DNA of 64,000 bases from Clostridia bacterium (GCA_017504655.1 JAFVQT010000036.1:33062-97061), one strand, 5' to 3'. Shown: positions 27,536-47,258, counted from the first letter of the stretch. Notes: generated by a model not told the origin, from the sequence alone. Program-made: numbers and translations.

Positions 27536-27607
27536 AATTTTATAGTCATTAAGATGCCAACTTATTTTAATAAGTTTGATATCAAATTGCTAAGGAGGTA
27601 TACATCA

Positions 27608-30278: not shown

Positions 30279-30851
30279 ATGTCAGTTAATTTACAAAAAG
30301 GTCAAAAGGTCAATTTAAGAAAGGAAAACAAAGAGGTTTTAAGACGTATTATGGTAGGTCTTGGCTGGGATGAGGCCGGCCGTTATTCGGAAGACGTAGA
30401 CTGTGATGCAAGTGCTATTCTTTGCAAGAGAGGAAAGCTGGCTGATTTTAGAGACGACGTAGTATTTTACAATCATCTCCGTCATGCAACGGGTGCGGTA
30501 GTTCACCAAGGTGATAATTTAACCGGCGAAGGGGACGGTGACGACGAGCAGATTTTCGTTGACCTCGGTGCTTTACCCTCTGAGTACGACAGAATCATTT
30601 TTGTAGTCACTATTTATCAGGCGCGCGAAAGGCGTCAGCATTTCGGCATGATAGAAAACGCATTTATCCGTATTTGCGATGCTTCAACAGATGTGGAATT
30701 CTGTAAGTTTGACCTTTCCGAGAATTATAACGGAGCAACGGCTATGATAGTCGGCGAAATGGTGAAGGATGCGGGTGAGTGGAAGTTCAACGCTATAGGT
30801 TATCCAACCGTTGACAACAGCATTCTTGAAATTGCCAGACGCTTTGAATAA
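30279..30851 (+). CDS. TerD-family protein, paralog 1 (TerD/TerE/TerZ/CABP-type Ca2+-binding stress protein).
   Basis: It matches the TerD signature along its length: LQKGQKVNL...VGLGWD...DVDCDASAIL, the acidic Ca2+-binding loop GDNLTGEGDGDDEQIFVDL, and the C-terminus EWKFNAIGY. Confidence 0.85.
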   Translation: MSVNLQKGQKVNLRKENKEVLRRIMVGLGWDEAGRYSEDVDCDASAILCKRGKLADFRDDVVFYNHLRHATGAVVHQGDNLTGEGDGDDEQIFVDLGALPSEYDRIIFVVTIYQARERRQHFGMIENAFIRICDASTDVEFCKFDLSENYNGATAMIVGEMVKDAGEWKFNAIGYPTVDNSILEIARRFE

Positions 30852-30942
30852 TTGATTTTAACCGATTGCAAATTTCCCCTTGCGGGAGATTTGCCGCTCG
30901 GTTGATAAAATGAAATTGTGCTTAATAAAAGGAGAAATAAAC

Positions 30943-31530
30943 ATGATTAATCTTTCTAAGGGTCAAAAAATAAGCCTTGATAAAAATATGAATCTCTGTC
31001 TTGTGGGGCTTGGCTGGGATCCAAACAAGTATAAGGGCGGAGCAACCTTCGATTTAGACGCATCCGTATTTTTACTCGGTGCAAACGGAAAGGTTATGAG
31101 CGATGAGGATTTTGTATTCTATTCAAATCCCACTCACTCAAGCGGTTCCGTAAAGTCACTCGGTGACGACCGTACGGGCGGAAAAAGTGATACCGGAGAT
31201 GATGAGAAAATTATAATCAATCTTTCTCGCGTTCCCGCTCACGTGCAAAAGATGGTTATAGTTATCACTATTTACGACGCAGTTGCAAAAAAACAAAATT
31301 TCGGACAGGTATCTAACGCTTACGTAAGAGTTGTTAAAATTAAAAACGAACAGGACGAGGTTGGCGAAGAGGTTGTTAAATTTGAGCTTGACGAGGAGTT
31401 TTCTAACGAAACCTCGGTTGCTGCGTGTGAAATCACCAGAAGCGGAAGTGATTGGAAATTCGGCGCTCTCGGCATTGGATATCAATGCGAGCTTGACGGA
31501 CTTTGCCGTATGTTTGGCATAGACGTTTAA
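30943..31530 (+). CDS. TerD-family protein, paralog 2.
   Basis: It contains MINLSKGQKISL...VGLGWDP...DLDASVFLL...GDDRTGGKSDTGDDEKIIINL...DWKFGALG. A start at 30943 (AAAGGAG RBS) is preferred over the track's 30880. It is about 75% identical to paralog 3. Confidence 0.85.
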   Translation: MINLSKGQKISLDKNMNLCLVGLGWDPNKYKGGATFDLDASVFLLGANGKVMSDEDFVFYSNPTHSSGSVKSLGDDRTGGKSDTGDDEKIIINLSRVPAHVQKMVIVITIYDAVAKKQNFGQVSNAYVRVVKIKNEQDEVGEEVVKFELDEEFSNETSVAACEITRSGSDWKFGALGIGYQCELDGLCRMFGIDV

Positions 31531-31580
31531 TTTAAATTAAAAATTAATTTTAAGATTTGTACAAATAAAGGAGAAATAGT

Positions 31581-32168
31581 ATGGTTAATCTTTCTAAGGG
31601 CCAAAGAGTGAGCCTTGATAAGGGTATGAGATTGTGTTTGGTAGGTCTTGGATGGGATCCTAACAGATATCGTGGAAGTTATGATTTTGACTTGGATGCA
31701 TCTGTATTTTTGCTCGGACCTAACGGTAGAGTAAGAAGTGATGAGGATTTTGTTTTCTACGGAAATCAGGTACATAAGAGCGGTTCGGTTAAATCGCTTG
31801 GTGACGACCGTACGGGTGGAAACAGTGAGGACGGTGACGATGAGCAGATTATTATTGATTTAAGCAGAGTTCCCTCTTACGTAACCCGTATTGCAGTTAC
31901 CGTAACCATATACGATGCTCAGGCAAGACGTCAAAACTTCGGTCAGGTATCAAACGCATACGTAAGAGTTGTTAAGATCAGAAACGAGGGGGACGAGGAC
32001 GGCTATGAGGTTGTTCGTTACGACCTTGACGAGGAATTTGCCGATGAAACCGCAATCGTTGCATGTGAAATTTCACGTAACGGAAGCGAATGGAAGTTCA
32101 GCGCGGTAGGAGCAGGCTACAGAGGTGAGCTTGCAGCGCTTTGCCGTAAATTCGGCGTTGACGTTTAA
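31581..32168 (+). CDS. TerD-family protein, paralog 3.
   Basis: It contains MVNLSKGQRVSL...VGLGWDP...DLDASVFLL...GDDRTGGNSEDGDDEQIIIDL...EWKFSAVG and has an AAAGGAG RBS. Confidence 0.85.
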   Translation: MVNLSKGQRVSLDKGMRLCLVGLGWDPNRYRGSYDFDLDASVFLLGPNGRVRSDEDFVFYGNQVHKSGSVKSLGDDRTGGNSEDGDDEQIIIDLSRVPSYVTRIAVTVTIYDAQARRQNFGQVSNAYVRVVKIRNEGDEDGYEVVRYDLDEEFADETAIVACEISRNGSEWKFSAVGAGYRGELAALCRKFGVDV

Positions 32169-32243: not shown

Positions 32244-33473
32244 ATGACTATGAGCTTTCAATCTTTTTGTTCAAAATGCGGTGGGCAGTTAATACAGCAG
32301 GACGAAAACACCTTTAAGTGTAAGTTTTGCGATTCAATTTACCGTGAAGACACGTTAAAGAAGGAGATTGATGCACTTTCGCTGTTATTGGACGAGAAAA
32401 AGAGAGAAGAGATTTCCAATTTAAAAAGGGAACTTTGGAAAAAGGCAAACGAGGAGTTTTTAGACAGTAAAGAGATTTTACGTCTTTGTCAAGAGGTGAA
32501 AAAGCTCGTTCCGGACGATTTTTATGCTAATTTTTACGAGGCGGCAAACTCGGATAACGAGGACCGTCTTGTCAGCATGCTTGAATGTATGGACGTGATA
32601 GAGCATTACGACGATATAGAGGACGTTATCGAATACTGCCTTAAATCAATTACGCCTAAAAATATGCTTGCAATATGCAATCTTATCGAAAAGGCATTCA
32701 AGCAAAACGATCTTTCTAAATATAACGAATACAGGACAAGGTACGACGAAAAGTGCGTGCTTATAAACGATTGCGTTTATGACCCTGCATATCCGCGTGA
32801 CGTATTCGTCTGCTATTCAAGTAAGGATATGCCAAAGGTAGAGGAGCTTGTAAAATTCTTAGAGGAGCAAGGTCTTTTATGCTTTGTTGCAATGCGTAAC
32901 CTTCAGCACGGAAGAGGGGCTGTTCAAAATTATTGGAATGCCCTGCACACGGCTATTGAAAGCTGTAAATGCGTTGTATTTTTATCTTCGACGAATTCAA
33001 GAGATATGCATTGCGATGCGTTGCAGGAGCTCAGATACGTACTGTCACTCGAGCAAAAGCTCAATAAAAAGATTAAGAGAATAGAGTATCTTCTCGAAAA
33101 TTATACGGGCGCAGTGGTTGAAAGAAACTTCAAGCGCATATTCGAGGGGTTGGAATATTGCTACGACGTAGATACGGTTTACGACAGAATAATGTGGGAC
33201 GACGATGAGGTTGCCGTTCCCGAGGTTCAAAGCCCCGAGATTTCCGTGCAAAAGGAAATAAAGTATTGCGTAAACTGCGGTAAAGAAAATTTAGACAGCG
33301 CAAAGTTTTGCTCAGATTGCGGAAAGGACGTTTTCGTTGCGACACACGAGGAATACGTGGAGCAGTTGAAAAAGCAAAGAGAGGAGCTTGAAGCGTTAAG
33401 GCAGTCCTTAGCAAGTGCAAACCAGCAGGTTGAGGAACAAAAAAGGATAGCCGAAGAGCAGAAAAGCAGGTAG
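32244..33473 (+). CDS. Zinc-ribbon / TIR-domain / zinc-ribbon / coiled-coil protein. It is probably the 5' part of a longer TIR-TerD gene interrupted by a frameshift.
   Basis: The N-terminus CSKCGG...CKFCDS is a zinc ribbon. The TIR signature is RDVFVCYSSKDMPKVEELVKFLEEQGLLCFVAMRNLQHGRG...CKCVVFLSSTNSRDMHCDALQEL. A second zinc ribbon is CVNCGKENLDSAKFCSDCGK. The gene ends in an AEEQ-rich coiled coil, and an alternative start lies at 32250. Confidence 0.75.
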   Translation: MTMSFQSFCSKCGGQLIQQDENTFKCKFCDSIYREDTLKKEIDALSLLLDEKKREEISNLKRELWKKANEEFLDSKEILRLCQEVKKLVPDDFYANFYEAANSDNEDRLVSMLECMDVIEHYDDIEDVIEYCLKSITPKNMLAICNLIEKAFKQNDLSKYNEYRTRYDEKCVLINDCVYDPAYPRDVFVCYSSKDMPKVEELVKFLEEQGLLCFVAMRNLQHGRGAVQNYWNALHTAIESCKCVVFLSSTNSRDMHCDALQELRYVLSLEQKLNKKIKRIEYLLENYTGAVVERNFKRIFEGLEYCYDVDTVYDRIMWDDDEVAVPEVQSPEISVQKEIKYCVNCGKENLDSAKFCSDCGKDVFVATHEEYVEQLKKQREELEALRQSLASANQQVEEQKRIAEEQKSR

Positions 33474-34264
33474 AGGAGCATAAAAAGCAAGCCGAAGAGC
33501 AAAAAAAGAAGGCTGAAGAGCAAATAAGGCAAGCCGAGCAAAGAAGACGGCAAGAGTCTGACTCTCAAATCCCTCAGCCGTCTAAGGTCGTTCAGCACGA
33601 TTATGCAGACGATGAATACGACGCTTATTTGCATGGTGATATGCAATTTGAGGACGTAGACCCTGAGGAGGATTACTATGAGGACACCTATCTTCAAGGT
33701 CGCAGGGCAGACGTTGCAACGCTTTATACGGGCGATGAGTTTATGGAGCTTATAAAGGGGCAGAACGTAATTTTGCCCGAGGGAATAAGAAAGGCACGTG
33801 TAACCGTTGAAAACGATTATAAGCTTGATAACGTAGTAGCCGATTTATATGTGTTTATGCTCGATAACAACGACCAGGTGCTTTCTGAATCAGATTTGAT
33901 ATTTTTCGGTAATACTTCGTCTTTGAATAAATCTGTCAGCATGACCGAGGACGAGGACTGTAACGTAGTAGATATTTCCTTTAACAAAGTAAATCAGGAC
34001 GTTTCGAAAATCCGTTTCATAATGTCTATGAATATGGAAGACGGCAGAATAAGAAACTTTTCAATGGTCAGGTCATCCAGCATTACGGTTTTACTTGAAG
34101 AGAGAGCCTTCGTTATTAATCTTGAAAACTTTGACAGATTTGAAAGTGTTCTGGCAATAGAGTTTTTAAGGATCAGAAACAAATGGAAGCTCAGCGTTCA
34201 GGTTGCCGGCTTTAAGGACAGTATAACTGCTATATGCGGTGACTACGGAATAGACGTAGAGTAA
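33434..34264 (+). CDS. Coiled-coil plus a divergent TerD domain. The reading frame is open upstream to 33434 and probably continues the TIR gene via a frameshift (the ORF track gives TTG 33629..34264).
   Basis: This frame reads ...QVEEHKKQAEEQKKKAEEQIRQAEQRRRQESD... and then a TerD-like domain (LIKGQNVILPEG...VVADLYVFMLDNNDQVLSESDLIFFGN...VVDISFNKV...IRFIMSM...KWKLSVQVAGF...ICGDYGIDVE). The domain lacks the canonical GDDxTG...GDDE Ca2+ loop and has no RBS or ATG of its own. Confidence 0.6.
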   Translation, partial: GTKKDSRRAEKQVEEHKKQAEEQKKKAEEQIRQAEQRRRQESDSQIPQPSKVVQHDYADDEYDAYLHGDMQFEDVDPEEDYYEDTYLQGRRADVATLYTGDEFMELIKGQNVILPEGIRKARVTVENDYKLDNVVADLYVFMLDNNDQVLSESDLIFFGNTSSLNKSVSMTEDEDCNVVDISFNKVNQDVSKIRFIMSMNMEDGRIRNFSMVRSSSITVLLEERAFVINLENFDRFESVLAIEFLRIRNKWKLSVQVAGFKDSITAICGDYGIDVE

Positions 34265-34306: not shown

Positions 34307-34888
34307 ATGCCTATTTTCTCTAAAAAGAACAAGAAGAGTCCCGAGGAGATTAAAAAGGAGCGCGAGGCTAAAATTGCCAGCACCTCAAATTCTCTTCGTT
34401 TACAGATAGTAACTCTTGAAAAAAAGAAAGAGGTCTTGCTTGGAAAGGTAATGGAAGCTAAAAATAAGGGTCTTAAGGAGCAAGAGCTTCAGGCAAGAAA
34501 TCTCTTAAAGCAGACTATGGCTGCTATAAAGAGAGAAAACGGAATGCTGATGACACTTGAGCTTGCCGTTCAGTCGCGTGATTTAGCTCAGCTCAACGCT
34601 AACTTTTTGGAAAGCATCGGTTCGCTTTCAGACGATATTTTAAGCTCAGGCAAGGTTACGAGCGAGGCAAACGCAAAGCGTATAGGAAACAAATTTTTAC
34701 GCGCCGTATACGAGTCTAATCAGCAAAAGGAGCGTATTGACGATATGCTTGCAATAGGTGATTATTCATCTGTAATCAGCAGCGACGGTGATCAGTATGC
34801 GGAATTTGACGACGAAATAGACAGTATGCTCGAAAATGCTCAGGATACGCAAGTAGGGTATAACACGCCTAATAGAAACCGCTATTAA
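34307..34888 (+). CDS. Snf7/ESCRT-III-like (PspA/Vipp1 superfamily) coiled-coil protein.
   Basis: KKSPEEIKKEREAKIA...LQIVTLEKKKEVLLGKVMEAKNKGLKEQELQARNLLKQTMAAIKRENGMLMTLELAVQS aligns by eye with eukaryotic Snf7/CHMP4 (KKSPQEAIQKLRETEEMLEKKQEFLEKKIEQELETAKKNAKKNKRAALQALKRKK...). It has an acidic C-terminus and an AAGGAG RBS. Confidence 0.6.
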   Translation: MPIFSKKNKKSPEEIKKEREAKIASTSNSLRLQIVTLEKKKEVLLGKVMEAKNKGLKEQELQARNLLKQTMAAIKRENGMLMTLELAVQSRDLAQLNANFLESIGSLSDDILSSGKVTSEANAKRIGNKFLRAVYESNQQKERIDDMLAIGDYSSVISSDGDQYAEFDDEIDSMLENAQDTQVGYNTPNRNRY

Positions 34889-34902
34889 TTAGGAGGTGGA
34901 AT

Positions 34903-36558
34903 ATGGGTTTTCGCGATTTTAAAAAAGAATTGGAAAGAAAGAGAGAGCAAGAGGAAACCATGCGTGAATTAAATTCCGCAATTTCCACGCTCACGAGAAA
35001 GCGTGACAGTTATACAAAGCAGGCTAAAGAAGCGTTAAAGTCGGGAAACACTTCTCAATATAACGCAATGGTTGCACTGCTTAGGCACGCAATATTTAAT
35101 CTTAAGCAAGCCCAGGATATGGTTGCAAATTTCACAATTGCAAGAGATATGTGTGAGATGCAGCATCTTAACAAAAAATTTGTCAAATCGTTAAATTCAG
35201 TAATGAATAACGTATACAAAACGTGCAAGGCAATACACGTAAGTACGAGTGAAAAGACTTTTATGAAGGCTCTTTATCAGCAAAATCAAACCTCGCTTGA
35301 GCTTCAACAGGCGTTGCAGGCAAACAATATGACGTTTGCAAGCAGTGTAGCCTCTCTTTCTGATATTGGCGACGATGAAATTAAAAATCTTTTAAGCGAT
35401 GAGATAGCTGCAGACGAGCAAATGATCGACACCTCGTTAGACGAGCTGGAAAGCTCGCTCTTGGGGTCGGTTGACGGTATCGAAATGCCTAAGGAAAATA
35501 TTGCTACTATCAGCACGCCGAGTGTAATCGGCTCTGCATCTCAGGCTCCCTGTACTTTAGCACCGGTAGCTCCGAGCGAGCATATAACACCTGCGGTCAC
35601 AAGAGAAGAGCCGAAATCCTTTGCAGGTACGCCTGCACCGTCTGCAGAAGGTAAAAAGCGTCCCGAGGACGAGCTTTTGAGCGGAGAGGGCGAAGCGGGT
35701 GATTTCGTTTGGGATAATATTCCGACTATCGGCTTTGATGATATCGCAGGCTTAGACGAGGTTAAAGAGGTGGTTCAGGTTAAGGTACTTCTTCCTCTTA
35801 AAAACCCCGAGGCTTTCGAGGGCTACGAAAAGAAGAACGGTGGTGGCTTGTGTCTTTACGGACCTCCGGGAACGGGTAAGACTATGATTGCCGCTGCAAT
35901 AGCAAAGGAAATCGGCGCAAAGTTCTGCTCGGTTAAGCCGTCTGATTTATTGCAGCAGGGTGCGGGCAATACAGAGCGTGCGGTCAGAACGTTATTCAAG
36001 CAAGCAAGAAAATTCCCTTGTGCCGTAATTTACTTTGACGAAATGGATTCTATTTCGCCAAAGACTACAAGGTCACAGTATGCAAAGCAGCTCAGGTCCG
36101 AGTTTCTTGCTCAGCTTCAAGGTGTAGAGAGCTACGGTAAGGATACGGGTAACCTTCTGTTCCTTATATGTGCGACTAACAAGCCTTGGGATATTGACAG
36201 TGCATTCCTCCGTCCGGGCCGTTTTGGTACTAAAATTTACGTAGGACTTCCCGATGCCCCTGCAAGAGAGTATATGATAAACAAGCGTCTTGCAAAAATC
36301 AAGGCAAAGGGTGTCGTTCGCGTTGGCGACGATCTTGACGTGGCAGGTATCGTAGAGAAAACCAATGGCTTTAATGGCTCTGATATTTCAAATCTTTTAG
36401 ACAGAATTGAAGAGATTTCAATCGTAAGAGGTATCCGTACGGGTGAAAAACTCATCAGCGGTGACGATTTTGATCAAGCCCTTTCAGATATTCACTCATC
36501 GGTACAAACCGAGGATTTGATAAAATTAAAAGAGTGGCGAGAGGAAAACGATTCGTAA
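34903..36558 (+). CDS. AAA+ ATPase (Vps4/katanin-type classical AAA) with an N-terminal ESCRT-III/CHMP2-like coiled-coil region and a Pro/Ala-rich linker.
   Basis: Walker A is LYGPPGTGKTM, Walker B is VIYFDEMDS, and the sensor-1/SRH region is ICATNKPWDIDSAFLRPGRFGTKIYVGLPD. The N-terminal 180 aa (RKREQEETMRELNSAISTL...QAKEALKSGNTSQYNAMVALLRHA...) resemble Vps2/CHMP2-type ESCRT-III. Confidence 0.75.
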   Translation: MGFRDFKKELERKREQEETMRELNSAISTLTRKRDSYTKQAKEALKSGNTSQYNAMVALLRHAIFNLKQAQDMVANFTIARDMCEMQHLNKKFVKSLNSVMNNVYKTCKAIHVSTSEKTFMKALYQQNQTSLELQQALQANNMTFASSVASLSDIGDDEIKNLLSDEIAADEQMIDTSLDELESSLLGSVDGIEMPKENIATISTPSVIGSASQAPCTLAPVAPSEHITPAVTREEPKSFAGTPAPSAEGKKRPEDELLSGEGEAGDFVWDNIPTIGFDDIAGLDEVKEVVQVKVLLPLKNPEAFEGYEKKNGGGLCLYGPPGTGKTMIAAAIAKEIGAKFCSVKPSDLLQQGAGNTERAVRTLFKQARKFPCAVIYFDEMDSISPKTTRSQYAKQLRSEFLAQLQGVESYGKDTGNLLFLICATNKPWDIDSAFLRPGRFGTKIYVGLPDAPAREYMINKRLAKIKAKGVVRVGDDLDVAGIVEKTNGFNGSDISNLLDRIEEISIVRGIRTGEKLISGDDFDQALSDIHSSVQTEDLIKLKEWREENDS

Positions 36559-36568
36559 GGAGGATTGA

Positions 36569-37699
36569 ATGAACTACCAAGTAGAATATTATAGAAATCT
36601 TTACGAAAAGTGCTATAAAGAGGGCTTGCAGGCAAATGACAGACAAAATTTTGCCCTCGCTTATAAAAAGCTTTCAGAATCAGCTCAATATTTACGCAAG
36701 CTCGCATCTGTCGACCTTGCAAACAAAGAGATATATACTGCAAGAGCAGATAAAATACAGCGCATTGCGACTGCGCTTCAGACAAAGGCAAACGAGCAGG
36801 CTCAGCCATGCCCCGCAAACCAAAGGGTGGACAGCCCTTACAACGGTTACAGCCCGTCGCAAGCCGTAGGTAGCGACACTTCAGGCGGATTTGCAGACGA
36901 GGATATGAGCGCGTATTATACCTTTTATAGCGCGGGTGATTTGGTGGACGGCTTTGACAAGGTTATCGGCCTTGAAGAGGCAAAAGAGGCTATAACAGAA
37001 TACGTTATAAATCCAATTCGCTATGCAGATGCCTACAGCTATAACTTTTTAAGCAGTAAATGTATTCTTTTGGAAGGCCCTCCCGGTACGGGAAAGACCA
37101 CGTTTGCAAAAGCCGTTGCAAAGGAAATTGAACAGCCGTTTGCGCTTGTAAACGTCGCCGCTATGGTAAACTGCTACGTGGGTGAAACGGGCAAGACGAT
37201 AGATAAGGTTTTTGCATCCTTAAGAAGATACGTTGAAGAGCATAATTGCGGAATAACTGTTTTCTTTGACGAATTTGATGAAATAGCAAAGAGCAGAGGC
37301 GGTGACGATAAAGCATCACAAACGGCAGTTCCCGCGTTACTGCGCAATTTAGACGGAGTAAAAGAAAATAAAAACTTCCTCATTTTGGCTAATACCAACT
37401 GCAAAGAATCGTTGGATGCAGGTATTTTAAGTAGATTCCGCAGGAAAATTTACATACCGCTTCCTGATAAGAATATGCGTGTTCAATTCTTTAAAAGCAA
37501 GCTGAGTCAGCTTGAAGCTAACTTCTTTGAGCGTTTGGATTTTGAACAGCTTGCAGACGCATCGGATGGGTTAAGTGGCCGTGCAATCGCGCAGATTTGT
37601 GACGATTTTCTCCATTTTATAGGTGGGGTTAAGGCAGGTATACGTTCTTGTGAGGATTTTAATCAAGCATTATTAGATATAATTATCAAGCAAAAATAG
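36569..37699 (+). CDS. AAA+ ATPase with an N-terminal MIT-like three-helix domain (Vps4-like architecture).
   Basis: The N-terminus YRNLYEKCYKEGLQANDRQNFALAYKKLSESAQYLRKL is MIT-like. The AAA module has LLEGPPGTGKTT, VFFDEFDE and LILANTNCKESLDAGILSRFRRKIYIPLPD. Confidence 0.75.
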   Translation: MNYQVEYYRNLYEKCYKEGLQANDRQNFALAYKKLSESAQYLRKLASVDLANKEIYTARADKIQRIATALQTKANEQAQPCPANQRVDSPYNGYSPSQAVGSDTSGGFADEDMSAYYTFYSAGDLVDGFDKVIGLEEAKEAITEYVINPIRYADAYSYNFLSSKCILLEGPPGTGKTTFAKAVAKEIEQPFALVNVAAMVNCYVGETGKTIDKVFASLRRYVEEHNCGITVFFDEFDEIAKSRGGDDKASQTAVPALLRNLDGVKENKNFLILANTNCKESLDAGILSRFRRKIYIPLPDKNMRVQFFKSKLSQLEANFFERLDFEQLADASDGLSGRAIAQICDDFLHFIGGVKAGIRSCEDFNQALLDIIIKQK

Positions 37700-38965
37700 G
37701 TGATTATGATGAAAATATGTCAAAACTGCAAGGCTAAGCTAAATAGCGACGACTTGTTTTGCAGTTCGTGCGGAGCAAAATACAACCCTGACTCCGCGTC
37801 AAATGAAAAAGACTCGCTGTTTTTAAAGTATTCAAGCTATTTAAATAACGATAGCTTGTTTAACGTAGCGTGGGCAAAGGAGCAGGGAATTGTTAAAAGC
37901 GACGTTGCCGACGAAGCTGAGCAAATATATAAGTTTTTAGCCATGAAGGGTCATTTAAACAGTATGTTCAGATACGCGATGATGTTATTAAATCGAGGAC
38001 CGAGTGGCTTAACCGAAGCAAGGACTTGGCTGAAGATAGCTTCTGAGCACGGGCACGTAGAGAGCATTAACTATTTAAAAGCAGAGCTTGGCGAGGATGT
38101 TAAGGGGAGTTGTGTCAGTCACGTGTTACAGTCAGCTCCTACCGTTTCTCCGACTGTACCGTCGGTTTCTCCTGCTGAGCCTGCCGTTTCTCCTGCACAG
38201 CCTGCTCAAAGCGTAAGAAGCGGTGCAGTGCTTTCGGGTGAGGAGGTCTATTCAAAGCTACAGCGTTCAGCAGTTGAAATACACGCCTATACGGCAAACC
38301 TAAAGGCTCGCTCATCTGGTTTTTTGGTTTCCTCAACGGGATTCGTGGTAACTAACGCCCATGCTGTTTTAGACGATGACGGAGAGGTTTACCAAAACGT
38401 ACAAGTGTACTACGGCGGTAAGTATTATCCTGCAAGGGTAGTAGCGGTAGGCAGTCCTGCAGACGGCAAAAACGACAGTGTAGACTTGGCTCTTTTAATT
38501 GCAGCGGGCTTGACGGATTGCAGTGCGGTTGACCTTGGCGACGAGGAGTGCCGTAACGGTCAAAAGGTATATCTTATAGGCAATTCGCTTGGCGACGGTA
38601 TTTGTATAACTTCGGGTATTATAAGCGACGGAAAAAGAGCAATGCCGGGGCTATCGTATCCTTATATAATGACTGATGCCGCTGCAAATCACGGCAATTC
38701 GGGCGGACCTTTGGTTGATGAGAGGGGCTCGGTAATAGGTGTGCTGGTTGCAGGCGTACAAAATGCAGAGGGTATGAATTACGCAATTCCTATTGATATA
38801 GTAAAAGAATTTTTAGCGTACGTAGTGTCCTTATTAAATTTACCGCAAAGCATTTTAGGCGAGCTTTATTCTGCAAGCCCAAGTAATATGTCTATAAAGG
38901 ATAAAATCTTTAAGGGTATTCATCTTGCTATTGATGTAATTGAATTTATTCTTAGTATTTTCTAA
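37700..38965 (+). CDS. Zinc-ribbon / Sel1-repeat / trypsin-like (S1C, HtrA/DegP-type) serine protease with a C-terminal hydrophobic segment.
   Basis: The zinc ribbon is CQNCKAKLNSDDLFCSSCGAK. Sel1-like repeats follow (MKGHLNSMFRYAMMLL...KIASEHGHVESINYL) and then a PxxS linker. The protease core has catalytic His in VVTNAHAV, Asp in SVDLALL and Ser in GNSGGPLVDERGSVIGV. Confidence 0.75.
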   Translation: MIMMKICQNCKAKLNSDDLFCSSCGAKYNPDSASNEKDSLFLKYSSYLNNDSLFNVAWAKEQGIVKSDVADEAEQIYKFLAMKGHLNSMFRYAMMLLNRGPSGLTEARTWLKIASEHGHVESINYLKAELGEDVKGSCVSHVLQSAPTVSPTVPSVSPAEPAVSPAQPAQSVRSGAVLSGEEVYSKLQRSAVEIHAYTANLKARSSGFLVSSTGFVVTNAHAVLDDDGEVYQNVQVYYGGKYYPARVVAVGSPADGKNDSVDLALLIAAGLTDCSAVDLGDEECRNGQKVYLIGNSLGDGICITSGIISDGKRAMPGLSYPYIMTDAAANHGNSGGPLVDERGSVIGVLVAGVQNAEGMNYAIPIDIVKEFLAYVVSLLNLPQSILGELYSASPSNMSIKDKIFKGIHLAIDVIEFILSIF

Positions 38966-38988: not shown

Positions 38989-39888
38989 ATGAAAGAAAAA
39001 ATCAGAAATCTTACAGTCGCTCCTCGCGAGGATTACGTTATTTGGACGGAAGACCTGACCAATATCGTTCGCGAAACAACGTTGACGGTATCTGCCGGAT
39101 GTGTTGCACTTTACTTAGTAAACGGCGTAATTAAGAGTATAAATATTCCCGGCCGTGCGCTTATTAAATCAAAAGCTGAAGACAAATCCAACAGCAAGCT
39201 CGAGCTCATATGCGTTAATACGGATAAAACCTTTGAAATTTGCTGTGGAGTAGGTAATATTCCTTTCAAGGATTCTGAAATCAACTGCGAAACCGTAGTT
39301 GGTGCACACGGTGAGTGTAAAATCAGAATTTCTCAGCCATGGCCTTTATACACGACCTTCGGCCACGCTCCTATCAGTGCTGAGGAAATTGATTCTTACG
39401 TTAAGCTTAAGCTCAACGAGATTATGACAACCCGTCTTGCAGAGGTTTTACAGCATTACGATTACAGCAATATTATGACTCAGCAGTCAGCTATTGCAGC
39501 AGACCTTGAAAAAAGATTTTCTCAACGCCTTAACGATATAGGTCTTGAGGTTACGAGCTTTGCGCTTGCCGGCATAATGTTCAACGCCGAGTATCAGGAA
39601 AAGCGCAGAGAGTATTTTGAAATGCAAAATTGCAGACAGGCAGAAAAGCTTGAGCGCAGAGCAAGAGAGCGCGAGCAAAGAGCGGAAATTGACAACGTTA
39701 TTGCAATAGCAAACGCAACAAAAAATCTCAACACGTCGTCTAACGTAACGCCTCCTCAGCCTGCAGCGCCCGTAACCCCACCACCTCAACCGCAGTCAGG
39801 CGCAAGACTGAATTTCTGCCCAAGATGCGGTACAAAGGTAGATCCTTCAGCAATTCATTGCTCGGGATGCGGTAAAAAACTTATATAA
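38989..39888 (+). CDS. SPFH/Band-7-like protein of the YdjI type (COG4260-like) with a C-terminal zinc ribbon.
   Basis: The N-terminus EDYVIWTEDLTNIVRETTLTVSAGCVALYLVNGVI resembles B. subtilis YdjI (IEWTDDSKDTLVYRFP...GAQLTVRESQVAVFVNEGEI). The C-terminus is FCPRCGTKVDPSAIHCSGCGKK, and GGAG serves as the RBS. Confidence 0.55.
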   Translation: MKEKIRNLTVAPREDYVIWTEDLTNIVRETTLTVSAGCVALYLVNGVIKSINIPGRALIKSKAEDKSNSKLELICVNTDKTFEICCGVGNIPFKDSEINCETVVGAHGECKIRISQPWPLYTTFGHAPISAEEIDSYVKLKLNEIMTTRLAEVLQHYDYSNIMTQQSAIAADLEKRFSQRLNDIGLEVTSFALAGIMFNAEYQEKRREYFEMQNCRQAEKLERRAREREQRAEIDNVIAIANATKNLNTSSNVTPPQPAAPVTPPPQPQSGARLNFCPRCGTKVDPSAIHCSGCGKKLI

Positions 39889-39905: not shown

Positions 39906-40244
39906 ATGGCATTATTCGGTCTTTTTGGAAATAAAGAAAAGAAAAATTTACAGGTAAACGAAGCTAACAAGGCAAAGATATTAAATATCTTAACTCAAAC
40001 TCAAATGGCATGTAAGGATGCTAACGCAATTGCAGTATTAAGAAAAATCGCTTCTCAAATTCAAGCTCAGGGTGAGTCCTCAAGCGAAGAGCTTATGACC
40101 ATCGACGGTGAAATTCTTAAGATTTTGACCGATTCTCACGCGTTTATTCTCAAGCAACAGTATCCGACTGCAATCAGTAAGTTAAACAAGGCGTTTAACC
40201 TTGCAGTTGACAGAAATCAATACTGCATGCTCGGCGGAAGATAG
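39906..40244 (+). CDS. Small protein (112 aa). It is probably the N-terminal part of one gene that continues in-frame past a TAG into 40287..41414.
   Basis: It has a strong RBS (AAAGGAG). It ends at TAG 40242-44, and the next ORF is in the same frame 42 nt downstream with no RBS of its own. Confidence 0.5.
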   Translation: MALFGLFGNKEKKNLQVNEANKAKILNILTQTQMACKDANAIAVLRKIASQIQAQGESSSEELMTIDGEILKILTDSHAFILKQQYPTAISKLNKAFNLAVDRNQYCMLGGR

Positions 40245-40286
40245 ACCAAACAGGATAAAAAGCTTGAAGATCAGGCAAATCGCGTA

Positions 40287-41414
40287 ATGGCTAACGTTAA
40301 AGCTGCAGAAAAGACTCGTGAAGAGGAGCTTCAATCTCGCTTGGACGAGCTTAATGCTGAATTTGAGGCTGCGGTAAACGAGCAAGCTCAGCTCAAGGCT
40401 CTTTATGAGCAAAACCCACACAACGCTTCAATTATCGGCAGAGCAAAATCTATACAAACCAAGATTATTTCTATTAAAAACCAAATTAACGCAACCACGA
40501 TTGAGTTGCAAAAGGAAGGTCAGGATGCTGCTATTATCAGTAACGTTGAATTCAACGAAACCTTAGCAAGCGGAAGACGTAACGATAGCGAAATGGATCT
40601 CGCCCGTGAAAATCTTAAGGCTCAAAATCAATTGCGTGGCGAAATGGCAAGTCAGCTTCATGAGGATGCAGACTTGTTAAATGCAGGCGCAGCAGGGCTT
40701 TTTGACGGTGATCCTTTTGCAGACCCGTTCCAAGACGCAGCGGCAACTGCTGACCTTTTTGAAAATCCGTTTGGCACACAGGCACAAGCATCTGCACCGA
40801 GTGCACAAACTCAATACGGTGGCTTCGACTCGTCAACTATCGGAACTACTTCAATGGCTAACGATATCAGAAAGGCTCGTCAGGAATTAGAAAAGAGCAT
40901 TGAAATTTTCAATGATAAAATTGACGATGCAAGCGACGAGTTAAACGAGTACAATGCTGAGCTTCGTCCTTTATTAGAGCGCAGACGTACCGCATCGCCG
41001 TCAGACTGTCTTACTCTTGACGGTCAAATCGACCAGATAAATGCTAAGAGAAATGCCGTAATCAATAAGATTAAGCGTTACCGTCAGGCAAACGCTCAGC
41101 TTGTGGATAAGCTCGGCTTACTCGATAAGCTCGATACTCAGCAGGATCTTGCTTTAACTAACGCAAAGATTGAACAGCTTACAAACGGAAAATTCGCAGA
41201 TTTCCAAGGTCTTGCTATGTTTCTTAACGATTCTGTTAAGAGAAGCAACGAGGAGCTTCAGGAAATCGGCGAAGCATCAAGCATTGCAGATGCAGAGGAT
41301 ATCATGATGAGCTCGGCTTCTGCTGCTTCTGCTGTTCTTTCCGACGTTGGCTCGATTACTAAAGACGAGCACAAATATGACGCTGTTGAACAAGAGTTAG
41401 GTATGACAATATAA
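40287..41414 (+). CDS. Long coiled-coil protein (PspA/TelA-like by composition only), in the same frame as 39906..40244.
   Basis: Heptad-rich sequence (EELQSRLDELNAEFEAAVNEQAQLKALYEQ...) and a DPFADPF acidic segment are present. I saw no catalytic motif. The TelA/PspA similarity is a composition-level guess. Confidence 0.45.
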   Translation: MANVKAAEKTREEELQSRLDELNAEFEAAVNEQAQLKALYEQNPHNASIIGRAKSIQTKIISIKNQINATTIELQKEGQDAAIISNVEFNETLASGRRNDSEMDLARENLKAQNQLRGEMASQLHEDADLLNAGAAGLFDGDPFADPFQDAAATADLFENPFGTQAQASAPSAQTQYGGFDSSTIGTTSMANDIRKARQELEKSIEIFNDKIDDASDELNEYNAELRPLLERRRTASPSDCLTLDGQIDQINAKRNAVINKIKRYRQANAQLVDKLGLLDKLDTQQDLALTNAKIEQLTNGKFADFQGLAMFLNDSVKRSNEELQEIGEASSIADAEDIMMSSASAASAVLSDVGSITKDEHKYDAVEQELGMTI

Positions 41415-41432: not shown

Positions 41433-42986
41433 ATGAATTTACAGTATATTTTACTTGCCGCTAAAACTATGTCCGAAAAGGCTGAAAAAGAGAATGCTTG
41501 CGGTCTTTCAAGCGCAAAGCAATCGTTTAGTATGGCGGCGAAGAGATATAGACAGGCTGCAGAGTTGGATCCAAATAACAGTAAGGAATATTTAAAGCTT
41601 GCGGAGGAATACGAGCGCAAAGCAAGCGGAGCAATGGCAAACAATGCTTCAATAAGCAGTATTCAAGGCGCGACAATGTCTTCTCGTACGCCAAACGCAC
41701 AAAATGCGCAAAATACACCGAGCGCGCAAGCACCCAAAAAGGAATCTGCAAAGCAAGAGCAGGCAATCAGCGCAAGCGTCACTCAAGAGGACGTTTCAAT
41801 TGAAGAGGCTATGGGTAGGCTTAACGCTCTTACAGGTCTTAAGGGAGTTAAAGAAAAGGTTCAGTCCTGGGTGTCGCAAATCAGGGTGTTTAAGCGCAGA
41901 GAGGAGCTGGGGCTTCCAGTTCCCGACGATTTTTCTTATCACCTCGTGTTTACGGGTAATCCGGGTACGGGTAAAACTACTGTTGCAAGATTTATGGCTC
42001 AGATATACAAGGGCTTGGGTATTTTGGAGCAAGGACAGCTTGTAGAAACGTCAAGTAGTGATTTGATTGCAGGCTACGTCGGTCAAACAGCTCAAAAAAC
42101 AAGGGCGGTAGTCGAGTCTGCAATCGGCGGTGTTCTCTTTATTGACGAGGCGTATACCTTAAACGGTAATGAAAAGGGTAACGAGTTTGGTAAGCAGGCA
42201 ATAGACGAGCTACTTAAGTGTATGGAAGACCACCGAAGAGAATTGGTTGTTATCGTTGCGGGCTACACCGACTTGATGGCTCAATTTATTGACACAAACC
42301 CCGGTCTTCAGTCGCGTTTTAATACGACGATAGAATTCGACGATTATACGGGCGACGAGCTTATGAAGATTTTTGACGGTCTTTGCAAGAAGAACAGATA
42401 CGAGCTTACGACTAAAGCAAGACTTATACTTAGCGAGCATTTCAATAAGCTCTACGAAAAGAGGGATAAAAACTTCGGTAACGGACGTACTGTAAGAAAC
42501 ACCTTCCAACAAATAGTTTTAAACCAGGCGCAGAGGCTTGACAGAATTTTCCAAACATCGCCAACCGCTCAGGTTTCAGACGAAATGATGGTTACTATTA
42601 CAGAAGACGATTTGTCAGGCGTTGTAGGTGAGGACAGCATTTCAAAAACTATCGAATATGAGCGCACTAAGGCTGAGATTAACGACGGTGTAATTTACGG
42701 TTACCTTTCTCAAAAGAATCTTCCCTCAGCCGCGACAGCTCTTTGCTCGCGTTTAGAAAGTCTTTTAAGATACGTTTACAATTTCTCGGGTGACCTTTGT
42801 ACTATGATTAACGAATTAAGGTCCTCCTCACACGCGAAGGCTAAGCTTTTGACAAGAGAGCATTACGATTGTATGTACCGCGTAAGGGTGTACAGAAACG
42901 CTCACGTTCATGCAGGTGAATGTGACGTTCAGCTTACTCCGCAGGACGTAATGGATTGCTTAAAGATAATCTTAATGCTCGAATAA
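41433..42986 (+). CDS. AAA+ ATPase of the SpoVK/CbxX type with an N-terminal MIT-like domain and a C-terminal extension.
   Basis: The N-terminus is AKQSFSMAAKRYRQAAELDPNNSKEYLKLAEEYERKA. The AAA module has FTGNPGTGKTTVARFMAQIY, GGVLFIDEAYTL and LVVIVAGYTDLMAQFIDTNPGLQSRF (CbxX/SpoVK-like). An AGGAG RBS is present. Confidence 0.75.
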   Translation: MNLQYILLAAKTMSEKAEKENACGLSSAKQSFSMAAKRYRQAAELDPNNSKEYLKLAEEYERKASGAMANNASISSIQGATMSSRTPNAQNAQNTPSAQAPKKESAKQEQAISASVTQEDVSIEEAMGRLNALTGLKGVKEKVQSWVSQIRVFKRREELGLPVPDDFSYHLVFTGNPGTGKTTVARFMAQIYKGLGILEQGQLVETSSSDLIAGYVGQTAQKTRAVVESAIGGVLFIDEAYTLNGNEKGNEFGKQAIDELLKCMEDHRRELVVIVAGYTDLMAQFIDTNPGLQSRFNTTIEFDDYTGDELMKIFDGLCKKNRYELTTKARLILSEHFNKLYEKRDKNFGNGRTVRNTFQQIVLNQAQRLDRIFQTSPTAQVSDEMMVTITEDDLSGVVGEDSISKTIEYERTKAEINDGVIYGYLSQKNLPSAATALCSRLESLLRYVYNFSGDLCTMINELRSSSHAKAKLLTREHYDCMYRVRVYRNAHVHAGECDVQLTPQDVMDCLKIILMLE

Positions 42987-43083: not shown

Positions 43084-44067
43084 ATGGAAAAAGAAATAGA
43101 AGGCAGTCTGTTAAACGGTAAGATGCAAAAGGCGTACCGGGTGGGTGCTTTGCTCTATATTCCCGCTGTTTACGATTTAAGCGTTGTAGATAAAATAGCA
43201 CGCGGAGATTTTAAGTCTGTTGCATTTTGCCTTGAGGATTCTATTGCAGACGATGCGGTGGAGCAGGCAGAAATAAACCTCAAAAGAATTTTAACTGCAA
43301 TAAAAGAAAGAAAAATTGCCAATTTGCCAATGATATTTATCCGTCCGCGCAGTCCTAAGCATTTGGAGCGCGTGCACAATGCTATTATGGGGCAAATTGA
43401 TATTGTATCCGGCTACGTTTTGCCAAAATTTGATATGTCTAATGCAAACGAATATAAGGCTATTTTTCTCGAGATAAACAAGCAGTCGCAAACGCCTTTA
43501 TATATGATGCCTATTTTGGAAAGCCGTTTGATTGCTCAAAAAAGCACGAGGACTGAAGAGCTTTATCAAATCAAAGCAGTATTAGATTCCATAAGCGAAT
43601 ACGTGCTGAACGTAAGAGTTGGAGGAAACGATTTCTGCAATTTGTTCGGAATTCGCAGAAGGGTAAATCAAACTGTATACGACGCAGGTGTCGTTCGTGA
43701 TATTTTGATTGATATTCTAAACGTTTTTTCTTTAGATTACGTTGTGTCGGGTCCCGTTTGGGAATATTATGGCAAGGATGAAAACGGCGATTGGGCAAAG
43801 GGCTTAAAAAGAGAGCTTGAGTTGGATTTGTTAAACGGCTTTGTCGGTAAAACGTCTATCCATCCCGAGCAAATCCCTATAATTTACAAAAGCTTAAGAG
43901 TGGATAAAAACGATTATCAGGACGCTCTCTCTATTTTAGGTTGGCATTCTTCAAGGTTGGGTGTCTTTTCAAGCGCAAATCACTCCCGTATGAATGAGGT
44001 TAAGTGTCACCGCAAATGGGCAGAGAGGATATTTATACTCGCAAGCATTTACGGAATTAAGGAGTAA
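43084..44067 (+). CDS. HpcH/HpaI aldolase / citrate-lyase beta-subunit-like TIM-barrel C-C lyase (Ter-associated biosynthetic gene).
   Basis: AYRVGALLYIPAVYDLSVVDKIARGDFKSVAFCLEDSIADDAV resembles the HpcH/CitE N-terminal strand-loop pattern. The call is strengthened by its operon context with ATP-grasp, PRTase and HAD genes. Confidence 0.6.
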   Translation: MEKEIEGSLLNGKMQKAYRVGALLYIPAVYDLSVVDKIARGDFKSVAFCLEDSIADDAVEQAEINLKRILTAIKERKIANLPMIFIRPRSPKHLERVHNAIMGQIDIVSGYVLPKFDMSNANEYKAIFLEINKQSQTPLYMMPILESRLIAQKSTRTEELYQIKAVLDSISEYVLNVRVGGNDFCNLFGIRRRVNQTVYDAGVVRDILIDILNVFSLDYVVSGPVWEYYGKDENGDWAKGLKRELELDLLNGFVGKTSIHPEQIPIIYKSLRVDKNDYQDALSILGWHSSRLGVFSSANHSRMNEVKCHRKWAERIFILASIYGIKE

Positions 44068-44071
44068 ACGT

Positions 44072-45079: not shown

Positions 45080-45081
45080 TT

Positions 45082-47257: not shown

Positions 47258-47258
47258 T

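Follow-up and report, generated by a model that had tools for sequence, protein, structure and literature searches.

The window analysed here, a stretch of 64,000 nucleotides from Clostridia bacterium (GCA_017504655.1, JAFVQT010000036.1:33062-97061), contains at 34307-37699 three real and tightly packed open reading frames. The source is an uncultured gut Clostridia bacterium. The spacers between genes 1 and 2 and between genes 2 and 3 are 14 and 10 nt, each of the three genes is preceded by a strong ribosome-binding site with an AAGGAG/AGGAGG Shine-Dalgarno sequence, and their products have identical counterparts in NCBI Clostridia MAG records as well as numerous homologues. They form the front of a cassette that ends at 42986 and whose seven genes encode, in order, a Snf7-like protein, a Snf7-like-motor fusion, an MIT-like AAA protein, a trypsin-like protease, an SPFH-zinc-ribbon protein, a coiled-coil protein of about 500 aa and a third AAA ATPase (Table 1).

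Table 1. Features of the cassette and its upstream flank, in window coordinates
Feature	Position	Strand	Basis
Three TerD genes	30279-32168	+	Pfam
Zinc-ribbon-TIR-zinc-ribbon gene	32244-33473	+	Pfam
Fourth TerD gene	33629-34264	+	Pfam
Gene 1, free Snf7-like (ESCRT-III-like) protein, 193 aa	34307-34888	+	ORF
Gene 2, 551-aa ATPase with Snf7-like N-domain	34903-36558	+	ORF
Gene 2 aa 7-186, second Snf7-like domain	34921-35460	+	hhalign
Gene 2 aa 187-271, Pro/Ala/Ser-rich linker	35461-35715	+	read from translation
Gene 2 aa 272-551, classic-clade AAA module	35716-36558	+	Pfam AAA
Gene 3, 376-aa MIT-like + AAA protein	36569-37699	+	ORF
Gene 3 aa 3-78, MIT-like three-helix bundle	36575-36802	+	AF2, profile A5
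Gene 3 aa 117-376, AAA module	36917-37699	+	Pfam AAA
Gene 4, zinc ribbon + helical repeats + trypsin-like serine protease	37700-38965	+	Pfam
Gene 5, SPFH/Band-7 + C-terminal zinc ribbon, YdjI-like architecture	38989-39888	+	Pfam
Gene 6, ~500-aa coiled-coil protein	39906-41414	+	tblastn
Gene 7, third AAA ATPase, SpoVK/CbbX/EccA type	41433-42986	+	Pfam, NCBIfam

The cassette and its neighbourhoods

The original prediction had placed the three genes inside a Ter/TIR locus, and Pfam does identify TerD and TIR genes directly upstream of gene 1. The order of the cassette is conserved across many loci, recurring in at least 11 others without TerD. Among the approximately 17 loci with flanks, TerD adjoins the module in just two, the window and locus L006, so the Ter/TIR setting lies outside the conserved unit, and the conserved TerD linkage of a TerD-centred Ter stress system is absent. 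The full cassette was found in 13 of 185,579 species representatives, with a patchy spread among gut MAGs and variable neighbourhoods containing accessory-type genes (TIR/LRR, TerD); TIR, TIR-LRR and BrxL-like neighbours recur at its loci. It was not found in the phage, plasmid and viral-contig collections that we searched.

The gene 4 product (Pfam Trypsin_2, E 5.7e-25, and Zn_ribbon_3; HtrA-type by NCBIfam) has no PDZ domain, and the protease was found in 10 of the other cassettes. Gene 5 (Pfam Band_7, E 2.1e-8, and Zn_ribbon_3) is kept in the cassettes and also in three distant versions of the module, L019, L021 and L026. Gene 6 is split in the window by an in-frame TAG at 40242-40244 into ORFs of 112 and 375 aa, and tblastn with the 509-aa orthologue from L005 gave one HSP, in one frame, that runs through this stop; the coiled coil is kept in the cassettes and does not match the Snf7-like profile. 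Gene 7, likewise kept, encodes a protein with a TPR/MIT-like N-terminus and a C-terminal DUF4145 (Pfam AAA, AAA_lid_6 and DUF4145) and scores 265 bits against NCBIfam spore_V_K.

In the distant versions a Snf7-like protein is paired with an AAA protein and accompanied by a Band_7-zinc-ribbon protein and trypsin (L019, L021) or by a Band_7 protein (L026). The AAA proteins of the gene 2 lineage in L021 and L019 match Vps4_C above threshold (32.0 and 29.9 bits) and have a Vps4-like pore loop, SKWVGES or SKYVGES. A minimal version, consisting of two Snf7-like genes and the MIT-like AAA gene, sits between der/plsY and spoIVA, among housekeeping and sporulation genes. This position, the SpoVK-like ATPase of gene 7 and the FtsK/SpoIIIE-type variants of gene 2 described below are the evidence for an explanation in which the module works in clostridial sporulation or cell division, for instance by coupling DNA translocation to membrane fission at engulfment, and is analogous to the archaeal Cdv system rather than part of stress or defence. 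However, a core developmental function is a poor fit because the full cassette is sporadic, its neighbourhoods are variable and its neighbours are of the accessory type, and division in Firmicutes is as a rule FtsZ-based. We consider this explanation very improbable.

The Snf7-like pair

The motifs quoted in the original prediction are found in the translations of genes 1 and 2, and for the 193-aa protein the KKSPEE start, the LEKKKE core and the acidic C-terminus are kept across an alignment of its family. The protein, whose N-terminal motif is MxxFxKKxKKTPEE, has no direct Pfam match by itself. The original prediction took it to be Snf7-like, and profile searches tie its bacterial family to Snf7-type ESCRT-III rather than to PspA. 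Profile A2, built from 108 of its relatives, found CHMP2A as the best match in the PDB (E 5.5e-4), in register (5-149 against 2-142), followed by CdvB2, CdvB, CHMP3 and Vps60; ESCRT-III proteins made up 5 of the 14 PDB matches at E<10. The sole PDB match of profile A1 was CHMP3, in an alignment that starts at the N-terminus. Pfam Snf7 (PF03357) was matched by 12 of the 108 family members (best E 9.6e-7) and was the only family matched by more than one of them. The relative P0164, whose gene sits in a cassette of the same kind, scores 27.0 bits against the Snf7 gathering threshold of 27.3 and covers Snf7 positions 3-169 of 171. Comparison of the gene 1 family with CHMP2A by hhalign gave E 5.4e-5, and in reverse phmmer searches of a 1801-sequence decoy database with CHMP2A and CHMP3 fragments all matches listed were family members. 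Foldseek also placed CdvB and CHMP2A/3 at the top for gene 1, but every match was at E > 1e-3. The AF2 model (pLDDT 72.5) predicts helices at 12-53, 57-114, 120-150 and 166-184. This layout, in which an alpha1-alpha2 hairpin precedes alpha3, alpha4 and alpha5 within some 200 aa, agrees with that of ESCRT-III. At the N-terminus the family has the basic/hydrophobic motif (alpha0) of the ESCRT-III type, which is predicted to bind membrane, and its consensus there, MxxFxKKxKKTPEEL, can be aligned with MGLFGKTQEKPPKEL of CHMP3.

In a rival explanation the Snf7-like domains of genes 1 and 2 are generic helical-hairpin or coiled-coil adaptors that owe their ESCRT-III likeness to composition, with the ATPases being ordinary classic-clade AAA chaperones that have TPR-like N-domains. 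Against this, the natural profile matches are mostly ESCRT-III proteins, Snf7 is the sole recurrent Pfam family, and the alignments are in register from the N-terminal motif onwards. Four coiled-coil controls (cc375, p112 and the coiled-coil proteins of L021 and L026) gave no match to the Snf7-like profile, and PspA fails as well. We therefore regard this explanation as improbable. An identity with PspA/IM30/Vipp1 was considered separately for gene 1 and rejected, since none of the 108 family members matches PspA_IM30, no PspA or Vipp1 chain is among the PDB matches of A2, and hhalign against E. coli PspA gave a probability of 0.9%. At the profile level only, gene 1 appears to fall within the ESCRT-III/Snf7 superfamily (PF03357).

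The 551-aa ATPase had been predicted to carry an ESCRT-III-like N-terminus of about 180 aa, and hhalign of A2 against gene 2 aa 1-214 (probability 99.3, E 3.3e-20, 180 columns) identifies this region as a paralogous copy of the gene 1 domain. From these comparisons gene 1 and the gene 2 N-domain can be recognised as paralogues in a Firmicutes family of Snf7-type ESCRT-III-like proteins. Orthologues of the N-domain (145-264 bits) are present in 14 other cassettes, where the C-terminal motors differ: the motor fused to the Snf7-like domain varies by locus between a classic AAA module, RuvB with a nuclease, and FtsK, and is thus interchangeable. The variants include nuclease-bearing (TnsA-like, NERD) and FtsK/SpoIIIE-type proteins. 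In the window the linker between domain and motor matches no family.

The C-terminus of gene 1 contains a conserved acidic helix, EFDDEIDxM, and a basic tail. The MIM1 consensus is (D/E)xxLxxRLxxL(K/R) and MIM2 is proline-rich; the original prediction had called for MIM-like motifs to be sought in the Snf7-like protein, and its C-terminus contains neither. An acidic helix, DxEIDxL[IL], is instead conserved in both paralogues.

The ATPases of genes 2 and 3

Both ATPases had been described as Vps4-like, which stands in so far as each has a single classic AAA cassette with Walker A and B motifs and SRH arginines. Neither reaches the Vps4 clade at the equivalog level of NCBIfam CdvC, against which they score 158 and 128 bits, far below the cut-off of 650, and CDC48, PAN and FtsH give similar scores, also below their cut-offs (for the 551-aa protein, CDC48 163, CdvC 158, PAN 156 and FtsH 148 bits).

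In the 551-aa protein the Pfam AAA match (E 4.8e-33) covers aa 316-449, with GPPGTGKT at aa 320, FDEMD at 378 and RPGRFG at 437; its Walker A is GPPGTGKT, its Walker B IYFDEMD and its SRH ATNKPWDIDSAFLRPGRFG, of the RPGRF type. The best single-domain PDB match of this module is katanin p60 (E 1.7e-41). Its C-terminal helix is Vps4_C/katanin-like and scores 20.0 bits against the Vps4_C gathering threshold of 21.3, and PF09336 is carried by some gene 2 orthologues. Pore loop 1 is degenerate, reading SDLLQQGAGN without an aromatic residue, and it is SDLLxQGxGN across 63 gene 2 orthologues, so that the family as a whole has lost the aromatic. The protein has no MIT domain because the Snf7-like domain forms its N-terminus. 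For want of both the MIT domain and the pore-loop-1 aromatic residue it is not a canonical Vps4.

The N-terminal helices of the 376-aa protein (3-24, 28-48 and 50-78) are modelled by AF2 with pLDDT above 90. Among natural PDB entries, profile A5 best matches the MIT domains of archaeal CdvC/Vps4, 2w2u (E 3.8e-3) and 4lcb (E 7.5e-3), and then those of Chs1, VPS4B and NRBF2; designed TPR proteins outscore the MIT domains in this search, and Pfam MIT does not match the protein. A disordered linker (aa 81-109) leads to the AAA module (Pfam AAA E 1.1e-28, aa 166-298), which has the pore loop NCYVGE, in which Tyr203 is nearly invariant in the family, and an SRH, GILSRFRRKIYIPLP, of the Vps4/katanin type; of the two arginine-finger positions of Vps4, one is kept in this SRH, GILxRFRKxIxIPLP. 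Yeast Vps4 is the best single-domain PDB sequence match (E 1.3e-32) and gives the highest identity in Foldseek (33-35%), where M. sedula Vps4 (4d82) comes first (E 1.1e-15). There is no Vps4_C match, and a Vps4 beta-domain insertion is not obvious in the AF2 model. Gene 3 thus encodes a protein that joins an MIT-like bundle to an AAA module whose Walker motifs are intact and whose pore loop has its tyrosine. The prediction of an MIT-like helical N-terminus plus AAA in the third protein is supported by the three-helix bundle, the Vps4-type SRH, the tyrosine and the top structural match.

Proposed working and known systems

Our results make it fairly likely that 34307-37699 encodes the core of an ESCRT-III-like bacterial module driven by AAA proteins, for which we propose polymer turnover. 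The basic, hydrophobic N-terminus of the gene 1 product would let it polymerise on the membrane's inner face, and the SPFH-zinc-ribbon protein may organise this polymer in the way that YdjI acts on PspA. The Snf7-like domain of gene 2 would join the polymer, and by such co-assembly a ring ATPase would be docked there via the flexible Pro/Ala/Ser linker. The MIT-like AAA protein of gene 3 could recognise the exposed, conserved acidic C-terminal helices and pull subunits through its pore, resulting in ATP-dependent turnover of the polymer as with Vps4/CdvC. The products of genes 4, 6 and 7 would be regulators or effectors. Because TIR/LRR, TerD and BrxL-like neighbours recur, we suggest that the module serves physiologically in an envelope-stress or anti-phage response and not in cell division.

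A rival explanation makes the cassette mainly an anti-phage or abortive-infection AAA + protease system like IetAS, in which the coiled coils are oligomerisation or sensor scaffolds, the gene 2 motors are effectors that act on phage proteins or DNA, and ESCRT-III ancestry is incidental, with no membrane remodelling. Of the named families in PADLOC and NCBIfam, IetA matches the 376-aa ATPase best, the ATPase gene is followed by one for a protease, gene 2 occurs in nuclease-bearing and FtsK-type forms, and the defence-type neighbours and patchy spread in gut MAGs agree with such a function. However, the IetA score is 132 bits against a family cut-off of 510, and no PADLOC system model covers the genes for the Snf7-like, SPFH or coiled-coil proteins. 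The phage, plasmid and viral-contig collections lack the cassette, a membrane site is indicated by its SPFH-zinc-ribbon protein and by the N-terminal motif of ESCRT-III type, and the minimal version lies among housekeeping and sporulation genes. We consider this explanation unlikely; as a statement of physiological role, the anti-phage reading is compatible with the ESCRT-like module.

A more far-reaching version of the ESCRT-like reading, which we put forward tentatively, is that some Firmicutes have a self-contained ESCRT machine of Snf7-type filaments with its own Vps4-type disassembly ATPase, whose Snf7-like domain docks interchangeable ring motors (a protein unfoldase, a RuvB-nuclease or an FtsK DNA pump) at a membrane-bound polymer in an envelope-repair or immune response. 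If this is true, the ESCRT-III/Vps4 partnership is not limited to archaea and eukaryotes, and is either older than thought or was acquired horizontally and then elaborated in bacteria.

Among known systems, the ESCRT-III+Vps4 systems of archaea (Cdv), Asgard archaea and eukaryotes resemble the module in that its lFgKK.KtPEEl is like the N-termini of CHMP2/CHMP3 and related bacterial cassettes hold Vps4_C-bearing AAA proteins. In contrast to them, its host is bacterial (Clostridia), it has no CdvA, no ESCRT-I/II and no MIM1/MIM2 consensus, it has an ATPase joined covalently to one of its subunits, and there are two to three AAA genes per cassette. The B. subtilis ydjFGHI system (PspA + YdjI), also from Firmicutes, shares the combination of an ESCRT-III-superfamily protein with an SPFH/Band-7-zinc-ribbon partner, and the inner membrane face is the probable site of action of both systems. 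YdjI (SPFH) localises PspA, and archaeal ESCRT loci have SPFH + coiled-coil + zinc-ribbon proteins (PMC10936438; PMC11237479). PspA systems are reported without dedicated classic AAA ATPases (PMC7619361), whereas the module has its own, together with a Snf7-type protein that does not match PspA_IM30.

The original prediction held a Snf7 + Vps4-like pair inside a Ter/TIR locus to be undescribed as a functional unit, and recent reviews depict bacteria without an ESCRT-III-like/Vps4-like pairing. This stands for the cassette, of which we found no description in the literature, but not for the general association, since Ravi et al. 2024 predicted that some bacterial members of the PspA/Snf7 clade work with AAA+ proteins in ESCRT-like remodelling and noted Band-7 links (PMC11237479). 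The idea of bacterial PspA/Snf7 + AAA+ is thus not wholly new. Their cases differ from the cassette and include a protein with two AAA copies of which the N-terminal one is inactive, a transmembrane Snf7 with ABC transporter genes, and transfers of archaeal Vps4 in which snf7 was displaced, and variation in Snf7 domain architecture is given as minimal (PMC11237479); fusions of a Snf7-like domain to AAA, RuvB or FtsK and a seven-gene cassette are not described there. The 'Meth_adaptin' loci of Makarova et al. 2024 (PMC10936438) similarly have ESCRT-III/Vps4 genes beside an SPFH + coiled-coil + zinc-ribbon protein, but these are archaeal, contain adaptin-like and other components, and have neither a protease nor fused motors. 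IetAS shares with the module a classic AAA ATPase that adjoins a serine protease. Membership in it was rejected on the IetA score, the Trypsin_2/HtrA type of the protease and the absence of a PADLOC system-level match, and the module conserves five genes more, the Snf7-like pair among them.

Gene array and the ESCRT-III-like family

The three ORFs at the centre of the original prediction are separated by 14 and 10 nt, and each is preceded by a ribosome-binding site, AAGGAG or AGGAGG. Pfam places one AAA cassette in the 551-aa protein (E 4.8e-33) and one in the 376-aa protein (E 1.1e-28), and identifies the upstream genes as four TerD genes and a zinc-ribbon-TIR gene. The ORFs, the AAA cassettes and the motifs quoted from the proteins were all confirmed, and the window proteins match NCBI MAG entries from uncultured Clostridia identically.

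Features of the window and of related loci in other genomes (L numbers)
Feature	Locus	Position	Strand	Length
Carbohydrate-use genes	window	5927-26615, 48797-50953		
Protein with Gln/Pro-rich middle and C-terminal zinc ribbon	window	26715-27317		200 aa
Single long gene array	window	27554-48026	+	
P-type cation ATPase	window	27554-30253		
TIR neighbour	window	32244-33473		
Gene 1, Snf7-like	window	34307-34888	+	193 aa
Gene 2, Snf7-like-AAA fusion	window	34903-36558	+	551 aa
Pore-loop-1 region of gene 2	window	35935-35970		aa 345-356
Gene 3, MIT-like AAA	window	36569-37699	+	376 aa
Coiled-coil gene, split	window	39906-41414		112 aa + 375 aa
In-frame TAG	window	40242-40244		
Third AAA	window	41433-42986		
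HpcH to HAD hydrolase genes	window	43084-48026		
TIR neighbours	L003	12746-end		
TIR neighbours	L006	3706-5577		
TIR neighbours	L016	12452-19090		
TIR neighbours	L019	1788-5831		
Minimal set	L023	10001-12290		

Searched alone, the 193-aa protein gave no significant match in Pfam, NCBIfam, PADLOC or the PDB. Its close family comprises 72 clusters (45-100% identity) from gut and rumen Clostridia MAGs only. The sole PDB match of a 34-member profile (A1) was CHMP3, in an alignment starting at residue 1 that is not significant (E 1.6); a search of 1.84 billion representatives with A1 yielded 210 relatives. A second profile, A2, built from 108 diverse members of ~190 aa each, matched CHMP2A in the PDB in register and over nearly the full length (E 5.5e-4), followed by CdvB2 (0.021), CdvB (0.046), CHMP3 and Vps60, and ESCRT-III proteins made up five of its 14 PDB matches at E <10. 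The hhalign comparison of A2 with a CHMP2A fragment gave E 5.4e-5. When the members were scanned singly against Pfam, 12 of the 108 matched Snf7 (PF03357; best E 9.6e-7), the sole Pfam family matched by more than one of them. One such member, P0164, fell just short of the gathering threshold (27.0 bits, threshold 27.3) across Snf7 positions 3-169 of 171, and its gene lies in a cassette of the form Band_7 - X - Snf7-like - AAA. Genomes were scanned with A1, A2 being too diverse for this use.

A rival reading is that the Snf7-like domains are generic coiled-coil adaptors. Four other coiled-coil proteins of these cassettes gave no match to the Snf7-like profile, and E. coli PspA gave none to the family (probability 0.9%). 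In reverse phmmer searches with CHMP2A and CHMP3 fragments, the 1801 sequences searched included decoy ORFs, and every match listed was a family member. The family N-terminus, MxxFxKKxKKTPEEL, resembles that of CHMP2 and CHMP3. Because of the profile matches and the clean controls, we think it quite likely that the 193-aa family belongs to the Snf7-type ESCRT-III superfamily, as a divergent bacterial branch of it, and does not belong to PspA, so the proposed Snf7-like identity finds its support at the profile level. The MIM-like motif that was to be sought at the C-terminus did not appear; the conserved acidic helix there, DxEIDxL[IL], departs from the consensus of both MIM1 and MIM2.

The two ATPases

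The predicted fusion of an ESCRT-III-like N-terminus to an ATPase was borne out, residues 7-186 of the 551-aa protein matching A2 over 180 columns (probability 99.3%, E 3.3e-20). Single-sequence phmmer with the 193-aa protein alone also found the orthologous gene-2 N-domains in register. After a Pro/Ala/Ser-rich linker of ~85 aa comes a classic AAA module whose Walker A and B motifs are intact and whose SRH reads ATNKPWDIDSAFLRPGRFG. Its C-terminal helix is of the katanin/Vps4_C-like kind (20.0 bits for Vps4_C, threshold 21.3), and its best single-domain PDB match is katanin p60. None of the 63 fusion orthologues keeps the aromatic residue of pore loop 1, the loop reading SDLLxQGxGN; in cassettes where this AAA lineage occurs unfused, SKWVGES or SKYVGES is retained. 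Since the aromatic residue is lost, the 551-aa ATPase probably does not work as a conventional threading unfoldase.

The AF2 model of the 376-aa protein (pLDDT 87) has a three-helix bundle (helices 3-24, 28-48 and 50-78; pLDDT >90), a disordered linker (aa 81-109) and an AAA module. A profile of its N-domain enriched with distant relatives (A5) had as best natural PDB matches the MIT domains of archaeal CdvC/Vps4 (2w2u, E 3.8e-3; 4lcb, E 7.5e-3), with designed TPR proteins scoring higher; the 4lcb match falls at the N-terminus of the full-length protein. The MIT domains of Chs1, VPS4B/SKD1 and NRBF2 came next. The fold and the natural matches are in keeping with the MIT-like N-terminus that had been proposed; Pfam MIT was not matched, and the designed TPRs rank above. 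The AAA module retains the pore-loop tyrosine (NCYVGE) and has an SRH of the Vps4/katanin type (GILxRFRKxIxIPLP). Yeast Vps4 is its best single-domain sequence match and has the highest identity in Foldseek (33-35%), where M. sedula Vps4 ranked first with E-values compressed across classic AAA proteins.

NCBIfam models for CdvC, CDC48, PAN, FtsH and IetA gave similar scores, all far below their cut-offs, and lid-only PDB searches returned p97, PAN, katanin and FtsH within a narrow, non-discriminating range. We therefore describe both proteins as classic-clade AAA ATPases with Vps4 or meiotic-clade features; this much of the claim for two Vps4-like ATPases stands, and the two are no more than candidate members of the Vps4 clade. 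FtsH-type and ClpX-type assignments find no support for either, as they are without transmembrane or protease domains and ClpX scored just 41 bits.

Gene cassette and genomic neighbours

When the ORFs of 15 related loci were searched with the window's proteins, at least 11 showed one conserved order: Snf7-like protein, Snf7-like N-domain-NTPase fusion, MIT-like AAA, trypsin-like protease, Band_7-zinc-ribbon protein, ~500-aa coiled-coil protein and third AAA. With its protease and AAA genes, the cassette has a rival reading as a pure AAA-protease defence system. The Snf7-like N-domain of gene 2 is orthologous across the loci (145-264 bits in 13 of 15; 87 in L012 and 58 in L018), and the motor on it is swapped between genomes. 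Seven loci have a classic AAA, five (L001, L008, L010, L011 and L013) RuvB_N plus RuvB_C, joined in several of them by a TnsA-like endonuclease, and three (L012, L016 and L018) FtsK_alpha plus FtsK/SpoIIIE; some other Snf7-like/RuvB fusion proteins contain a NERD nuclease.

The coiled-coil gene occurs in every cassette. In the window an in-frame TAG splits it into two ORFs in the same frame, which could reflect a pseudogene, a sequencing error or read-through. Further ESCRT-III paralogues were rejected among these 112-aa and 375-aa ORFs and the 201-aa and 309-aa coiled-coil proteins of L021 and L026, none of which gave a profile match. The third AAA, of the SpoVK/CbbX/EccA type, has a TPR/MIT-like N-terminus (E 2.6e-4 against the 376-aa N-domain profile by hhalign) and a C-terminal DUF4145; a 376-type AAA takes its position in some cassettes (L001, L011 and L013).

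Distant cassettes are simpler. In L019 and L021 a Band_7-zinc-ribbon gene and genes for small proteins accompany the Snf7-like gene, the AAA gene and a trypsin-like protease gene. In L026 the Snf7-like and AAA genes come with those for a Band_7 protein and a 309-aa protein, and the minimal set of L023 is two tandem Snf7-like genes and an MIT-like AAA. The AAA proteins of L021 and L019 share the lineage of the 551-aa AAA module (40-42% identity), exceed the Vps4_C threshold (32.0 and 29.9 bits) and have SKWVGES or SKYVGES pore loops. Because these cassettes also combine a Snf7-like gene with an AAA, the predicted Snf7-like/Vps4-like pairing is conserved across the whole family. The L023 set lies between der/plsY and spoIVA, a core-genome, sporulation-gene neighbourhood.

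The pair had been proposed as a unit within a Ter/TIR locus. TerD, HpcH and PRT neighbours are limited to the window and L006 among the loci compared, so the Ter setting is incidental and was rejected as the defining context. TIR or TIR-LRR genes adjoin the cassette in the window, L003, L006, L016 and L019; they are often giant TIR-LRR genes (BspA-type LRR_5) with a common N-terminal zinc-ribbon-TIR region, and a BrxL-like ATPase lies downstream in L019. Downstream in the window are HpcH/citrate-lyase-like, ATP-grasp, two phosphoribosyltransferase-like and HAD hydrolase genes, which we take to resemble the Ter-associated nucleoside-like metabolite module of Anantharaman et al. 2012; L006 likewise has HpcH-like and two PRT-like genes alongside TerD and TIR. 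The 200-aa zinc-ribbon protein and the P-type ATPase precede the TerD genes, the latter also in L006. The flanking genes (DUF4838 proteins, GH38 alpha-mannosidase, Listeria-Bacteroides repeat protein, lacto-N-biose phosphorylase) fit a gut glycan-degrading Clostridia chromosome, unlike a mobile element. A mobile-element origin is unsupported, since no relatives were found in phage, plasmid or IMG/VR collections.

Proposed mechanism and known systems

From the sequences, structure predictions and gene linkage we infer a mechanism in which gene 1 would polymerise at the membrane via its N-terminal motif and be organised by the SPFH-zinc-ribbon protein. The gene-2 N-domain would join this polymer and tether a ring motor there, the MIT-like AAA would bind the acidic C-terminal helices and recycle subunits, and the protease, coiled-coil protein and SpoVK-like AAA may regulate or execute the response. 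YdjI is an organiser of PspA, and archaeal Meth_adaptin ESCRT loci contain proteins that combine SPFH, coiled-coil and zinc-ribbon parts (PMC10936438, PMC11237479). A sporulation or division machine is a rival reading; we favour an envelope-stress or anti-phage role because the cassette is distributed as accessory genes are and has TIR/LRR, TerD and BrxL-like neighbours, whose recurrence points to a possible role in membrane-linked defence or repair in gut Clostridia.

No earlier description of the cassette or of Snf7-like-motor fusions turned up in targeted literature searches. Vps4-like ATPases, the partners of ESCRT-III, appear absent from bacteria according to a 2025 review (PMC7619361), Makarova et al. 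2024 found ESCRT homologues or components not identifiable in bacteria (PMC10936438), and recent literature treats the disassembly of bacterial ESCRT-III relatives as an open question. The locus supplies candidates that can be cloned for a Snf7-type polymer of bacteria and a dedicated MIT-like AAA, together with natural polymer-motor fusions, so this question becomes testable in vitro; the locus is also relevant to the age of the ESCRT-III/AAA partnership. The fusions suggest a new principle, an ESCRT-III domain as tether for different ring translocases. Some bacterial PspA/Snf7-AAA+ partnerships were predicted by Ravi et al. 2024, but their architectures differ from this cassette and little Snf7 domain variation was reported there (PMC11237479). 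Among known systems, the cassette comes closest in presumed working mode to archaeal CdvB/CdvC and to the ESCRT-III/Vps4 of Asgard archaea or eukaryotes, and in its SPFH link to Firmicute PspA-YdjI.
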